The notes under the pieces are model-generated. The model did no database searches. It worked only from the letters and a program-made list of their open reading frames with translations, and was not told the origin of the DNA. A stretch of 54,576 nt of DNA from a virus, in IMG/VR virus record IMGVR_UViG_3300001528_000116, positions 1 through 54,576 of that record, one strand, 5' to 3'. The translations under genes and the position numbers were made by a program. Positions 31,017 through 41,201 of the stretch are shown one piece after another. Within the stretch, counting starts at the first letter, position 1, and each line of letters begins with the position of its first letter.

Positions 31017-31101
31017 AGAGAATGCTCCTTTTTTAATAGCTCCCCCCCCCGTGCGTGGGGTAGTTGGGAGATTATAGTCAATTATTTTTAACTGTACCTT
31101 G

Positions 31102-31130
31102 ATTATAGATAAAAAAATTTGACTTGTCAA
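31102..31130 (-). promoter_or_regulatory. Early promoter copy 1: TTGACA-17-TATAAT with overlapping GTCAA/TTGAC operator
   Basis: The minus strand reads TTGACAAGTCAAATTTTTTTATCTATAAT. GTCAATTTTATTTGAC lies just upstream. Confidence 0.7.
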
Positions 31131-31214
31131 TCTTAAAGTCAAATAAAATTGACCAGAACCACAAGCCAAAAAATTTTTATCGAAAACGACAGAGCAGTAG
31201 TCCTGTGTAGCCGA

Positions 31215-31430
31215 CTACCGGAACTCCTTGCCCGTCGAATTGTCTCTAAGTTCAATACGGTTAATCAGCTCAAAGCCTGCGTTGTTAATGATGTACTTTA
31301 GCACCTTGATAAGAAAATTCTTTCTACCTTCAAGAGCTGCATCCTCTTTGGAAACTGCCTTTACAGCTTTATAGGCTGTCGGATCAGCGCATCCGCTTTG
31401 ATTGTAGTATGGATTCTTTTCATTACTCAT
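31215..31430 (-). CDS. Hypothetical protein
   Basis: 71 aa from MSNEKNPYY..., after GGAGG. Confidence 0.4.
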   Translation of the reverse strand: MSNEKNPYYNQSGCADPTAYKAVKAVSKEDAALEGRKNFLIKVLKYIINNAGFELINRIELRDNSTGKEFR

Positions 31431-31998
31431 TCGCTGTACCTCCGTTATATTTCTCAAAGAACTGTGCATAATATTTTTCAACCACGCCTAAAGGGCATTT
31501 GTGCTTTTTGGCAAGTGCCTCAGCCGGGGTAGACATATCTGTCAGCAGATCAGTAAAAATCTTTATGCGTAGTCCCTTTTCTTTTTCAAGCTGTGATGCC
31601 TCTCTGTTTGCGATAGTATCGCATTTCTGATTGTATTTATTACCTGCATGACCCCGTACCCATTTGGCGGTTACTTTATGCCAGGTTGAAAGCCGGAGTA
31701 CCTGTTCCCACAAGTCAGCGTTCTTACGTCCGGGAGTATTCACATACGCCCTTAGGTTGCCTCTGTTTATCGTTTTGGCAACATACTGGCTGTCTGTTAT
31801 GATTGTGACCTCAGAGGGCCGCGTAAGCAACCGCAAGCCCTCGATAACAGCTTTTAATTCCATTCGATTGTTTGTTGTATACCAATCGCTGCCGTGTACC
31901 TCTTTGGTGTTGTCCTTATGTAAGAGTATTGCGGCATATCCGCCTGGACCAGGATTTCCATGGCATGAGCCATCTGTGTATATCGTAACTCTATCCAA
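31423..31998 (-). CDS. rnhA: Ribonuclease H (RNase HI)
   Basis: IYTDGSCHGNPGPGGYAAIL...NNRMELKAVIEGL...TDSQYV...GHAGNKYNQKCD. Confidence 0.8.
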   Translation of the reverse strand: MDRVTIYTDGSCHGNPGPGGYAAILLHKDNTKEVHGSDWYTTNNRMELKAVIEGLRLLTRPSEVTIITDSQYVAKTINRGNLRAYVNTPGRKNADLWEQVLRLSTWHKVTAKWVRGHAGNKYNQKCDTIANREASQLEKEKGLRIKIFTDLLTDMSTPAEALAKKHKCPLGVVEKYYAQFFEKYNGGTANE

Positions 31999-32010
31999 TC
32001 TCAGCCCTCC

Positions 32011-38085: not shown

Positions 38086-38096
38086 AATGTGCCTCC

Positions 38097-40088
38097 TTAG
38101 TCCTTCGTGAAGAAATCGCCTACCCAACCATCAGCTCCCAGTGGTAGTCCGGGCGCCCATGGTATAGGCTGTGTCATAATATCTGTGACCGCCTGTAGCA
38201 TGGCTTTGTCCTCAGCAAAAGGTTTAATATCAATGATGACCTCATCATGTACATGGAACACGATAGGGAAGCCAGCGGCTTCAAGTCGTTCTATCGCGTC
38301 TGCCAGTGCGTCACGGGCAATAGCTTGTACACAATTCTCTGTCAGCTTTCCGCCATAGGTTTCTACGCGTTTCCATTTCTTTGAGGTCTGATCCATTCCC
38401 ATATAAGTGATAGATGGGTTTCCCCATCGGTTTTCTCCTACGCCCGGCTCGATATAAAAGAGCTTTCTACCAGACGGTAGAGTGATGGTAAGTGCGCTTT
38501 TTCCGTGTGCGTAATCATGCTCACGCGCAAGAGTAACGCAATGGACTTTCTGGCACCCACCATATTGAATGACCTGTACTGCAGCATTATCCATCTCATA
38601 CCACAAGTCGCGGATCTTTGAGTTGGCATTTCTCCAGCGGTCTACAATCTCTGGCAATTCTGCCTCAGTAAGCCCCATATTCAACGCACCCATGTTAATA
38701 AGTGCGCCTGTGCTTCCCTGGTAGCCTAAAGCCAGCTCAGCGACCTTGCCTTTAGCCCTCAGCGCATACTCAGGATTGCCCTTTTTAATAAGCTCCATTG
38801 GCACTCCGAACATCTGTGAGGCTGAGGCCTCATAAATCTTTCCGTGTGTTTTGAATACATCAAGTCGCCATTGCTCTCCGGCAAGCCACGATATGACGCG
38901 TGCCTCGATTGCTGAGAAATCTGCATCCACCAGCTTGTTACCCGGACTTGCCACAAAGGCTGTCCTGATAAGCTGAGAGAGGGTATCAGATACGGCATTC
39001 ATGCCATAGCAGACACGCAAGCCGTCCGTATCCTCATTTCTCACTAAATCACGCGCCACCTCAATAGCCTGTGTGTATGTCCTCGGTAAGTTCTGCACCT
39101 GCACCAGACGCCCGGCCCAACGCCCTGTACGATTTGCGCCATAGAATTGTAGGAGTCCTCGTACCCGGCTGTCGGCGCATACACAAGTTTTGATAGCGTC
39201 ATATTTCTTTGTGGAGGTCTTTCCCAGCTCTTGGCGTATTTCCAGCATCCGCTGTACTTCCGGTGTGTTATCCTCGCTCATCAGATCTGCAACAACAGCT
39301 TTATTTACGCTTGTAACATCTGCGTCAACACGGCTGTCAAGCCATTCTGCAAGCTGCTTAACACTGTTCGGGTTGTTGAGCTGGGTAATTGCTGTCGCCT
39401 CTGCCGTAAGCTCTGACTTAACCGTATCGCCTATAACCAGTGCGCCATTGACAAACGGCATATCTACGGACACGCCTCTGGAATTGATCCTGAGATCTGT
39501 TTCCCATTGCTTTTGTACGAAATCAGGCACCGGGAAACTGGAAAGCCTGTTTTCTATATCTTTTTCCGCAACAACGTCCTGCAAGCAATATTCCTTGAAC
39601 AGATTCCATTTCTCTATATCATGTTGCGGTAAGTTTCTTGTCCTGCCCCCGTTGCTTTTTGTAGGCTTACAAGGGGTACAAAAATATCTGATAAGTGCTT
39701 TACCCGTATTGAGCTTTTGCTTATCCTCTGGGAGTCCCAACGCTTTACCAACTGACTCCAGGCTGGCTGTGTATCCACAATAGAGCGCATGGAACATAGA
39801 ACAGCGCCAGTGGCTCGGTTCCATCTGACCGAAATATCTTGATAAACAGCCGTACTCAAATGTTGCGTTATGCGCGTGTTTGATATATGCCGGATCATGT
39901 AATGCTGAGACAATCCACTCCGGTACGACCTCGCCCTGTGCAAGATCTATAATCTGCACAGGGTTGTCGTCAACCGAATAGGCGAATAGCAGTATCTCAA
40001 AATCTGGGCTTAAAAGGTATTTCCACAATCCAGCATCCCGGATTGAGATGCTGGAATATGTTTCTAAGTCAATGTGTAAGTCGTGCAT
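38097..40088 (-). CDS. Family A DNA polymerase with 3'-5' exonuclease
   Basis: 663 aa with IDLETYS (Exo I), DADFSAIEARV (motif A), KGKVAELALGYQG (motif B) and HVHDEV (motif C). Confidence 0.85.
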   Translation of the reverse strand: MHDLHIDLETYSSISIRDAGLWKYLLSPDFEILLFAYSVDDNPVQIIDLAQGEVVPEWIVSALHDPAYIKHAHNATFEYGCLSRYFGQMEPSHWRCSMFHALYCGYTASLESVGKALGLPEDKQKLNTGKALIRYFCTPCKPTKSNGGRTRNLPQHDIEKWNLFKEYCLQDVVAEKDIENRLSSFPVPDFVQKQWETDLRINSRGVSVDMPFVNGALVIGDTVKSELTAEATAITQLNNPNSVKQLAEWLDSRVDADVTSVNKAVVADLMSEDNTPEVQRMLEIRQELGKTSTKKYDAIKTCVCADSRVRGLLQFYGANRTGRWAGRLVQVQNLPRTYTQAIEVARDLVRNEDTDGLRVCYGMNAVSDTLSQLIRTAFVASPGNKLVDADFSAIEARVISWLAGEQWRLDVFKTHGKIYEASASQMFGVPMELIKKGNPEYALRAKGKVAELALGYQGSTGALINMGALNMGLTEAELPEIVDRWRNANSKIRDLWYEMDNAAVQVIQYGGCQKVHCVTLAREHDYAHGKSALTITLPSGRKLFYIEPGVGENRWGNPSITYMGMDQTSKKWKRVETYGGKLTENCVQAIARDALADAIERLEAAGFPIVFHVHDEVIIDIKPFAEDKAMLQAVTDIMTQPIPWAPGLPLGADGWVGDFFTKD

Positions 40089-40118
40089 TCTGCCTCGCCT
40101 CCTCGCTGCGTAGCTCGC

Positions 40119-40811
40119 TTACATCGGCATACCTGTAATCGGATTGATCTGAGGTGCGGCGGCCATACCAGTGTTCTGATAGTTCATCTGTCCTGGTGTT
40201 GCTGGCATAGCCGCGCCATAATTAGGTGCTGCCGGAGCTGCTGCCGGTGCGGTTACACTCTGACCGATTCCCTCGAAATCAGAAGCAGCAGAAGCACCAC
40301 CGGCAAGAGGCTCTCCGTCACGGGTTTTCATTACATTACCCAGGCCACAGCCCACGCCCTTATTTCCATTACTGTTGAATGAGAAGAAATTGAGAGTAAC
40401 ACGGGCATACATACCGCTGTAGATGTCCTGTGGTGCAAGTTCACAGTTAATATTGCTGATGTCAACAACCTGTGGCTTGCGCTTTGTGCTTGCTGTGATT
40501 ACCCAGTGACCGGCGCATTCAGGCCCGAACTTGGAGCCATCATTTCTGAGGCCGTCGCCGTCGTAAATAAGCTGAGAGCGGAGCTGCGGTCTTGCACCCT
40601 TCCAGTCATTTGCTACTGCCTGCTCATATACATACTTGATAGCAGCGTCGATCTCTGCCTTTGTGGCTACATCTGTCTTAGGAATAAGCATTGTAGTGGA
40701 AAACTTAGGCTCTGCTCCCGGCTGATTAGGGTTTGCATATGCCTGTGAAAGATGCTCATAAGAAAGTCTTACCTCGCCTGTTAATACCTTACTTGGAATG
40801 TTCTGATACAT
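40119..40811 (-). CDS. DUF2815-like ssDNA-binding protein
   Basis: MYQNIPSKVLTGEVRLSYEHL...STTMLIPKTD. Sits in the common DUF2800-DUF2815-PolA phage replication block. Confidence 0.55.
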   Translation of the reverse strand: MYQNIPSKVLTGEVRLSYEHLSQAYANPNQPGAEPKFSTTMLIPKTDVATKAEIDAAIKYVYEQAVANDWKGARPQLRSQLIYDGDGLRNDGSKFGPECAGHWVITASTKRKPQVVDISNINCELAPQDIYSGMYARVTLNFFSFNSNGNKGVGCGLGNVMKTRDGEPLAGGASAASDFEGIGQSVTAPAAAPAAPNYGAAMPATPGQMNYQNTGMAAAPQINPITGMPM

Positions 40812-40851
40812 AATTTTAATCTCCTTTATCACTTAAATTTCATCAATAACC

Positions 40852-41201
40852 TTAGTTGACCTTATGTGTTGATAAGAATGTGTTGATCTCGTTCTGCATC
40901 TTATCTAAAAACTTGATAACCTCTGGACGCTGGCTCATAATAGCGGCGTTGTCTCTTTCAAAGATGAAAGGCTCTAAGCCGTTCATAATGCTGTCTGTGA
41001 GCTTCTCCGTCTGTAAGAGGATAGCCGCGCTGTCGTCATGCTCGGCGATATGCTCAACGATATGGTTCAACACATCCTTAAATGCTTTCTGTTCGTCCTG
41101 ACGCTTTCTGCAGTCAGCTCTTGCCTTTTCAAGTGGGCTTACGGGGGGGTTACTGATCCTGCAAGTCCCATCATCATAAAATCTAAAAATGGATCGTTCA
41201 T
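40852..41201 (-). CDS. Hypothetical protein, frame interrupted at a C7 tract (G7 on plus, 41143-41149)
   Basis: ATG 41201 overlaps the upstream stop (ATGA). MNDPFLDFMMMGLAGSVTPP then hits a stop. One extra C continues as VSPLEKARADCRKRQDEQKAFKDVLNHIVEHIAEHDD... to 40852. Confidence 0.4.

Follow-up and report, generated by a model that had tools for sequence, protein, structure and literature searches.

The IMG/VR virus record IMGVR_UViG_3300001528_000116, analyzed over its full 54,576 nucleotides and referred to here as the window, holds the whole genome of a temperate phage, 54,501 bp long and circularly closed by an exact 75-nt terminal direct repeat (positions 1-75 and 54502-54576). Its early region carries a group of long G/C homopolymer runs in the genes of DNA methyltransferases (MTases), in a helix-turn-helix (HTH) fusion gene, in a small early gene and in the leader of a primase gene. 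The genes and runs concerned, all on the minus strand and with run lengths given for the coding strand, are the following; ORF denotes an open reading frame, UTR an untranslated region and f0 the MTase reading frame of the C5 gene.

31042-31050: G9 tract in the 5' UTR of a VapE-type primase gene, 22 nt before the ATG at 31019
31130-31102: sigma-70-type promoter of the primase leader, TTGACA-17-TATAAT, 12/12 consensus matches
33546-34095: HTH-fusion gene, 182 aa if its tract is G8; in the window a 140-aa ORF (33673-34095) and a 37-aa HTH ORF (33546-33659)
33701-33709: G9 tract between the coiled-coil ORF and the C-terminal HTH; in-frame length G8
35069-35819: N6_N4 (beta-class) orphan DNA MTase gene, frameshifted in the window
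35230-35238: G9 tract of the N6/N4 MTase gene, just ahead of motif I; in-frame length G8
35820-37668: circularly permuted C5 MTase gene, 615 aa if the 37045 tract is G8
36374-36381: tract C5d, G8, in frame (AKGGDV)
36432-36440: tract C5c, G9, in frame (VYGGGSE)
36541-36548: tract C5b, G8, in frame (MGTGGGNTP)
37045-37053: tract C5a, G9; G8 joins f0 to the C-terminal half, G9 joins a +1-frame ORF to it instead
37045-37487: +1-frame ORF, about 148 aa when it stops after the tract
40852-41201: small early gene, 116 aa in frame, its start overlapping the upstream stop (ATGA)
41143-41149: C7 tract close to the 5' end of the small early gene; in-frame length C8 or C5

Non-random occurrence of the tracts

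A preliminary description of this DNA had listed these eight runs, and all eight are present at the positions and lengths it gave, reading on the plus strand as five C9, two C8 and one G7. Its further statement that no other run of seven or more exists holds for G/C and fails for A/T, since six A/T runs of 7-8 lie elsewhere (A7 at 28446 and 31111, A8 at 50732, T7 at 10529 and 42336, T8 at 43992). As simple-sequence repeats (SSRs) long enough to slip, the window has the eight G/C runs of 7-9, distributed over four ORFs and one 5' UTR. G/C run lengths are bimodal, with single C6 (15214) and G6 (21994) runs, no C7, two C8 and five C9. Seven coding-strand G8-G9 runs fall within 31-37 kb, and the structural half of the genome (1-28 kb) contains no G/C run of seven or more.

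The G/C runs are far more numerous than chance would give, and they are anomalous at the codon level. The pattern GGGGGGGG matches 12 times (in 7 tracts), as against 0.86 +/- 1.06 matches in 100 dinucleotide-preserving shuffles, none of which gave 12 and of which the highest gave 5. GGG is the rarest glycine codon of the phage, at 9.1% of 982 Gly codons in 42 tract-free genes; among the Gly-Gly pairs of those genes GGG-GGG is found in 0 of 80, versus seven occurrences in three tract genes. The three tracts in the body of the C5 MTase (36374, 36432 and 36541) are indeed in frame, as had been proposed, and encode Gly-Gly or Gly-Gly-Gly.

The tract-bearing genes

Single-base correction restores each of the genes that the preliminary description had considered broken. 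One G fewer at 33701 yields a 182-aa fusion of the 140-aa coiled-coil ORF with the C-terminal HTH, and a natural intact fusion of the same 182 aa occurs in the relative L162 at 11558-12106; the gene has weak HTH matches to phrog_3855 and DUF433. One G fewer at 35230 yields a 249-aa N6_N4 MTase that spans the entire PF01555 profile (positions 1-221 of 221, E = 1.7e-31, 110 bits against a cutoff of 26.7) and contains the motifs DLPYG and CMGSGTTG; the natural in-frame counterpart in L162 is 251 aa long. One G fewer at 37045 connects C5 motif VIII to the downstream half of the 615-aa C5 MTase. At 41143 one additional C gives the 116-aa ORF, and natural alleles with C8 and 116 aa are found in L082, L224 and L230. 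The product of this small early gene has no match in Pfam or PHROG.

A further tract-bearing gene is confined to the common variant of the phage. It encodes a 200-aa NPPY adenine MTase (phrog_799 "DNA methyltransferase", E = 4e-65) with a C tract just before motif IV, in frame as C8. In loci L213-L232 (at about 8072-9999, e.g. L213 9397-9999) a canonical 436-aa C5 MTase without tracts is followed by the NPPY MTase, and this C5 plus NPPY module stands in place of the permuted C5 gene of the window in most relatives.

In every one of these genes other than the permuted C5 gene the tract is practically the only lesion, because resetting it to eight, with no other change, restores the full ORF: in 24/24 copies of the N6 MTase (249-251 aa), 23/23 of the HTH fusion, 15/15 of the NPPY MTase, and, for the small gene, 17/17 of a G allele and 6/7 of a C allele. 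The tract is thus the sole lesion in 85/86 gene copies tested, with the downstream frame intact, and this fits the expectation of reversible switching under continued purifying selection.

In the primase leader, 22 nt separate the tract from the ATG and about 45 nt from the promoter upstream, which agrees with the placement in the 5' leader that had been assigned to it. The leader tract is predicted to form a hairpin with an upstream CUCCC..CCCC sequence and, being free of frame constraint, probably tunes expression through leader structure or spacing.

Length variation among relatives

Exact flank-pattern scanning of IMG/VR around the N6 tract returned only the contig of L001, so relatives had to be gathered by protein-seeded scans. 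These gave L001 (IMG/VR, 94% identical), L082, L083, L084 and L106 from gut metagenomes and L162 from a GTDB metagenome-assembled genome (92-96% identical), and the distant relative L002 (about 77% nucleotide identity); twenty more loci, L213-L232, were obtained through the ON (in-frame) and OFF (frameshifted) forms of the N6 MTase. Lengths were compared in a 20-kb MAFFT alignment of 24 genomes (the window and 23 relatives, 92-100% identical) and by flank-anchored comparison.

Every G/C tract of seven or more varies across the 24-genome alignment. The lengths found in the 24 relatives, with numbers of copies in parentheses, are these:

Primase leader tract: 8 (10), 9 (10), 10 (2), 11 (1), 12 (1)
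HTH-fusion tract: 7 (4), 8 (12), 9 (7), 10 (1)
N6 MTase tract: 8 (13), 9 (11), a distribution biased by sampling
NPPY MTase C tract, among relatives: 6 (1), 7 (7), 8 (8), 9 (6)
Small early gene, among relatives: G7-G10 or C5-C10, depending on the allele

The small gene exists as two strongly diverged alleles which both carry a homopolymer at the same place, 15-20 codons in, made of C in one allele and of G in the other. A/T runs in the same alignment serve as controls: T7 at 31117 is invariant in 24/24 genomes and T7 at 28452 in 23/23, and 22/24 keep A8 at 43999 unchanged. The near-identical phage copies compared stem from many independent short-read assemblies.

Tract changes accumulate far ahead of substitutions. 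Seven of the roughly 12 uncompensated indels that separate the window from L162 over 20 kb lie in tracts. L223 and L231 have 0 SNPs (single-nucleotide polymorphisms) in 17,118 nt, yet differ in one of five comparable tracts, and L215 and L217, with 1 SNP in 20,450 nt, differ in two of five. The fraction of differing tracts is 0.30 at fewer than 5 SNPs and reaches a plateau of about 0.65 beyond 60 SNPs; a change of 0.3 per tract against about 2.7e-5 per site puts the per-tract rate about four orders of magnitude above that of substitution. Across genomes, the state of one tract is not linked to that of another. Even at about 77% identity, L002 retains tracts at the leader, HTH, N6, C5b, C5c and C5d positions. 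Repeat-number polymorphism among near-identical genomes, as is characteristic of an SSR contingency locus, is therefore present, and so is change of frame without other inactivating lesions, except in the permuted C5 MTase gene.

A census of 90%-identity protein clusters, in which 15 members per cluster were listed so that the counts are lower-bound samples, gives the following classes:

N6 MTase, 251 aa, G8: at least 96 contigs
N6 MTase, 200 aa, G9, C-terminus TKGGGYRT*: at least 235 contigs
N6 MTase, 220 aa, G7, C-terminus TKGGIPYL: at least 19 contigs
HTH fusion, 182 aa, G8: at least 48 contigs
HTH fusion, 140 aa, G9: at least 264 contigs
HTH fusion, 141 aa, G7: at least 91 contigs
NPPY MTase, 200 aa, C8, in frame: about 585 contigs among the members listed
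NPPY MTase, 103-aa fragment, C9: about 446 contigs among the members listed

The C-termini of the length classes correspond to exactly the three reading frames at the tract, and the ON and OFF forms of the N6, HTH and NPPY genes each occur on tens to hundreds of contigs, isolate genomes included (WP_154266906.1). Proteins without tracts behave differently: the DNA polymerase (PolA) is 663 aa throughout among the members listed, and a 153-aa control protein is 152-153 aa with rare outliers of 155, 136 and 44 aa and no frame-defined classes.

The permuted C5 methyltransferase and its overlapping reading frame

The C5 MTase of the window has the motif order IV-VI-VIII-TRD-IX-X-I (TRD, target-recognition domain), with motif IV (PCQ) close to the N terminus and motif I (LFDGIGGF) at the very C-terminal end. 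All motifs of PF00145 are present in permuted rather than canonical order, and the Pfam profile matches only part of the protein. The permutation is common to the entire family of these phage C5 MTases (the C5 genes of L003-L080). In L210 (130-3722) three tyrosine-recombinase genes are inserted at the PCQ motif and truncate the C5 MTase gene.

The four tracts of this gene differ among the close relatives as follows:

C5a: G7 in L001; G8 in L162, where f0 reads through; no tract in L002, where f0 reads through
C5b: G7 in L001; G9 in L162; G6 in L002
C5c: G7 in L001; G9 plus A in L162; G7 in L002
C5d: G8 in L001 and L002; GA+G8 in L162

A frameshift upstream of 37045, suggested by the protein-like second frame there, was considered and rejected, because f0 reads through in both L002 (no tract) and L162 (G8).

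That second frame is the +1-frame ORF, which in relatives lies at L004 10182-10619, L038 10179-10643 and L162 8207-8653. In 71/81 loci the +1 frame is open for about 145-155 codons, from just after conserved "KEM" codons to just past the linker that follows motif VIII. Among 69 non-identical codon-aligned genes, f0 diversity at codon positions 1, 2 and 3 is about 0.13/0.10/0.42 outside the overlap; within it the position-3 value falls to 0.16-0.28, and in the linker the pattern is inverted to 0.27-0.36/0.13-0.19/0.07-0.12, the periodicity of the +1 frame. In 21 of 32 distinct sequences the +1 ATG is preceded, at 7-13 nt, by a perfect AAGGAG Shine-Dalgarno sequence. Gene callers called the ORF 898 times, in L211 despite an intact f0. 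AlphaFold2 modeling from 83 sequences gives a disordered N-terminal half and a confident C-terminal three-helix domain (pLDDT, the model's per-residue confidence score, 85-96 at residues 100-147). The ORF belongs to no Pfam family; a profile search of PDB sequences and a Foldseek search of the PDB gave nothing significant, and a weak match to phrog_16143 is the only similarity found. No literature report of an ORF embedded in C5 MTase genes was found. These features are evidence that the +1 ORF is a real, conserved overlapping gene.

The length of the 37045 tract determines which of the two frames continues into the C-terminal half of the C5 gene. G9, as in the window, fuses the +1 ORF to the TRD-IX-X-I half as a 555-aa ORF (35820-37487), and G8, as in L162, fuses f0, whereupon the +1 ORF ends at 148 aa. 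In the subfamily of L040 and L051 a conserved strand, "SYAVRIRGG", is read in the +1 frame as far as a G7 run and in f0 beyond it. One tentative reading, which we consider possible but rather doubtful, is that the permuted C5 genes of hundreds of gut phages hold a translated +1 gene and that the 37045 tract toggles between two proteins instead of between ON and OFF. The predicted +1 product would have a disordered basic N-terminal half followed by a three-helix domain, LSQILE..KYxLSAKACQGILRRAERRGKDLP. G8 would then join the catalytic half (motifs IV-VIII) to the TRD/IX-X-I half, and G9 would join the overprinted protein to that same half, giving a putative non-catalytic, sequence-specific DNA-binding product.

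Tracts in related gut phages

Runs of G8-G10 or C9 occur in other MTase families of related Lachnospiraceae-type phages, with Pfam identities confirmed and several of the runs out of frame; the C5 MTases of related gut phages likewise bear long G/C runs.

ParB_N+N6_N4 MTase: G8 in frame in five loci; G9 out of frame in L056 (13316)
D12-class MTase: two G9 runs in L008 (4497, 4579)
NPPY MTase: C9 out of frame in L002, L005 and L008
MT-A70 MTase: G10 in L076

Across 80 IMG/VR loci, MTase genes hold about 21 of the 31 runs of eight or more (9 of 15 when each distinct site is counted once), a share that is biased in that the loci were picked around a C5 MTase and many sites share ancestry. G8-G10 runs are seen also in a PAPS-reductase-like gene and at a gene junction before a DUF1064 protein, and the positions of the related-phage runs include L025 16718, L076 5964, L020 3097 and L055 8669/L061 5884.

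Interpretation and alternatives

The G/C runs most probably are slipped-strand contingency loci that phase-vary the orphan MTases of a widespread temperate phage of Agathobacter rectalis. According to the proposed mechanism, nascent and template strands would misalign during replication in runs of eight or more G:C pairs, with the gain or loss of a single base as the outcome, and this would happen about 10^4 times as often as a substitution at any one site. In the ORF tracts a length of eight would keep the frame, and lengths of 7, 9 or 10 would shift it, so that the truncated protein lacks something essential, namely motif I in the N6/N4 MTase, motif IV (NPPY) in the NPPY MTase, the TRD-IX-X-I half in the C5 enzyme, the HTH in the regulator-like fusion, or nearly the whole protein in the case of the small early gene. 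A lysogen population or a virion burst would then be a mixture of up to about 2^5 "phasotypes" differing in DNA methylation. The benefit may be bet-hedging, in that methylation would shield the DNA from restriction-modification (R-M) but expose it to methyl-dependent restriction; alternatively it may lie in epigenetic regulation in lysogens. An anti-restriction bet-hedging role seems at least as plausible as gene regulation of the phasevarion type. That switching is of high frequency, reversible and within clones is inferred from comparison across assemblies.

Several observations weigh against this interpretation. The permuted C5 gene is broken in every copy of the clade: at tract a in the window, at a, b and c in L001, at b, c and d in L162 and at c in L002. 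Its tracts in L162 are interrupted or extended at their edges (GA+G8, G9+A), and 5.8 billion protein clusters contain fragments of 148-423 aa but no intact homologue of more than 58% identity. The gene looks more like one in decay than one that switches, as far as these alleles tell; decay and multi-tract switching are inseparable here, because with four tracts the all-ON state would be rare in any case. The preliminary suggestion that both phage MTases are phase-variable is thus supported for the N6 enzyme, with ON and OFF forms in relatives and the tract as sole lesion, and is less secure for the permuted C5 enzyme, which has no intact copy in any relative found and may be decaying. More generally, metagenome assemblers pick one consensus from mixed populations, and relaxed selection in prophages would be equally consistent with the excess of OFF over ON forms seen with the N6 MTase and the HTH fusion.

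A rival view is that the runs are neutral hotspots in dispensable prophage genes, the MTases and their neighbors being decaying pseudogenes in which slippage is unselected. The broken C5 copies and fragments, the tract-edge substitutions in L162 and the OFF majority for the N6 MTase and HTH fusion among the members listed all speak in its favor. Against it, the tract is the only lesion in 85/86 copies, with the frame beyond it preserved; ON alleles still stand at 25-55% frequency among the members listed, and the tracts are made from the rarest Gly codon of the phage. The preliminary description had reasoned that lengths fixed out of frame in all relatives would indicate plain pseudogenes; lengths instead vary, and in-frame alleles exist for all four genes that are broken in the window. 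Moreover, tracts persist at 77% nucleotide identity, a C or a G run arose at one and the same site in the two diverged small-gene alleles, and no fewer than six unrelated MTase families have such runs in related phages, which together is evidence that mutability itself may be under selection. Neutral hotspot decay is accordingly disfavored for four of the five ORFs and possible for the permuted C5 gene; as an account of the tracts as a whole we judge it unlikely.

An origin in sequencing or assembly, with the true tracts fixed and in frame, might be suspected from the proneness of long homopolymers to error on several platforms, from the four window genes that are each off by one base, and from the low coverage of some contigs (about 6.6x for L084). 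It is very unlikely because A/T runs of 7-8 are essentially invariant in the same assemblies, because OFF proteins of identical sequence are shared by up to 179-468 independent contigs, drawn from different studies and assemblers and from isolate genomes, and because lengths range over 7-12, beyond +/-1. The three in-frame tracts of the C5 body argue against a systematic +1 call, as the preliminary description had reasoned. A comparably small chance is given to decoding-level slippage, in which out-of-frame DNA would be the normal state and RNA-polymerase slippage or ribosomal frameshifting on the G run would tune the output of full-length protein. In its favor, RNA polymerase is known to slip on long homopolymers, the N6 and HTH tracts are most often G9, and the "SYAVRIRGG" strand of L040 and L051 would need a change of frame at its G7 run. 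But no fixed programmed length is conserved, because near-identical genomes differ in the DNA lengths themselves and each of the three frames is represented; nor did a stimulatory element come to light, though no search aimed at one was made. Slippage in decoding can coexist with switching at the DNA level, adding leakiness to it, and cannot explain the DNA polymorphism.

Phage, host and genome setting

The host is Agathobacter rectalis, to judge from protein-cluster names and from records such as WP_154266906.1. A look-up of the serine recombinase as a route to the host flanks gave no record. Exact-sequence look-ups link the window's proteins to Agathobacter rectalis records and to hundreds of human-gut contigs, many of them 100-480 kb long, the phage being a prophage inside these bacterial contigs; a Megablast search of the 10-kb tract region against 50,697 GenBank phages gave no match. 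Other features of the genome are the following.

1-28 kb: structural genes
28611-31019, minus: VapE-like primase/helicase, 802 aa (Pfam PF05272, E = 2.6e-76)
31423-31998, minus, early block: RNase H
32200-32853, minus, early block: Tad3-like protein (Pfam PF25185, Type I Thoeris inhibitor, E = 5.5e-21)
38097-40088, minus, early block: family-A DNA polymerase
40119-40832, minus, early block: Enc34-type single-stranded DNA-binding protein
41649-42875, minus, early/replication block: DUF2800/PD-(D/E)XK protein
44017-44478: CI-like repressor
44869-46479: serine recombinase
50800-51603: endolysin with CW_7 repeats

The early block can be described as rich in counter-defense functions because the Tad3-like protein sits in the same block as the MTases. 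No res or hsd genes lie beside the MTases, whose neighbors are phage replication genes; by this gene context the phage MTases are orphan and Type II-like and do not belong to Type III (mod) or Type I R-M systems.

The genome also contains a diversity-generating retroelement (DGR), with a reverse transcriptase at 52754-54001, a template repeat at 54304-54432 and a variable repeat at 487-615 that lies in the 3' end of a tail-fiber-like gene (479-1369). The repeats are 129 nt long and 87% identical, and 17/17 mismatches are at template adenines of the coding strand. Two independent diversification systems thus appear to be present in one phage, the DGR for the receptor-binding protein and the homopolymer tracts for early and epigenetic genes. 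Three homologous intergenic arrays of about 245 nt (21011-21256, 28350-28596 and 50483-50729; 61-82% identity), dense in GTTACA/TGTAAC half-sites, look like repeated operator or promoter regions that may serve some phage regulator.

Relation to known systems

Phasevarions rest on phase-variable Type III mod or Type I hsd MTases with SSRs in Haemophilus, Neisseria, Helicobacter and Moraxella. The arrangement described here would share with them a repeat inside a DNA MTase ORF, slipped-strand mispairing, ON/OFF states and epigenetically distinct subpopulations, and the variable genes are likewise DNA methyltransferases (PF01555 for N6, phrog_799 for NPPY and PF00145 for C5). It differs in that the enzymes are orphan Type II-like MTases (the PF01555 beta-class enzyme, the small NPPY adenine MTase and the permuted C5 MTase) and in that several of them would switch independently in a temperate phage of a Gram-positive gut commensal. 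Phages are well known to carry orphan anti-restriction MTases, such as P1 Dam, T4 Dam and the multispecific C5 MTases of Bacillus phages SPR and phi3T. These too are early phage MTases without a cognate nuclease, and the C5 enzyme here resembles them in its long repeat-like target-recognition region; its permuted motif order and embedded +1 ORF set it apart. To our knowledge none of P1 Dam, T4 Dam or the SPR and phi3T MTases is switched by repeats.

The nearest phage precedent is in Campylobacter phages, in which hypermutable polyG tracts lead to phenotypically mixed populations (Sorensen et al. 2021, Cell Rep 35:109214, as cited in PMC12823448). The likeness consists in polyG tracts that are phage-borne and, here, variable between phage copies. 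Theirs belong to lytic phages of a host that is itself polyG-rich and lie in receptor-binding or structural genes, whereas those of the temperate Lachnospiraceae phage are in early genes (MTases, a regulator-like gene and the primase leader), with tail-fiber diversification and host range handled by a separate DGR. Campylobacter jejuni itself has polyG contingency loci, among them the Type IIG R-M gene cj0031 (PMC4889913), and its CJIE1 prophage is reported to carry homopolymeric tracts (PMC4004267). On the account these sources give, the loci are alike in having G8-G11 within ORFs, ON/OFF by frame and length polymorphism among near-identical genomes; the present tracts belong to another phylum and another kind of element and are clustered on a 10-kb phage early region. 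In the literature searched, Campylobacter phages were the only phage polyG precedent found, and no report of SSR-switched MTases in gut or Lachnospiraceae phages was found, only bacterial R-M systems.

Biological significance

The findings would extend SSR contingency loci to temperate phages of gut Firmicutes; most known cases come from mucosal pathogens that are Gram-negative and from Campylobacter phages. The prophage is present on hundreds of independent contigs. Agathobacter rectalis is among the most abundant bacteria of the human gut. Apparent "frameshifted pseudogenes" in viral catalogues can be switch states, and the recurrence of G/C tracts in at least six MTase families of related phages suggests a general strategy. 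If three orphan MTases do switch stochastically, each lysogen population or burst would carry a spectrum of methylation patterns, which would affect the strains that can be infected, through evasion of R-M as against exposure to methyl-dependent restriction. It would likewise affect the linking of phages to hosts by shared methylation motifs in metagenomics, methylome-based strain binning and, possibly, gene expression of the lysogen.

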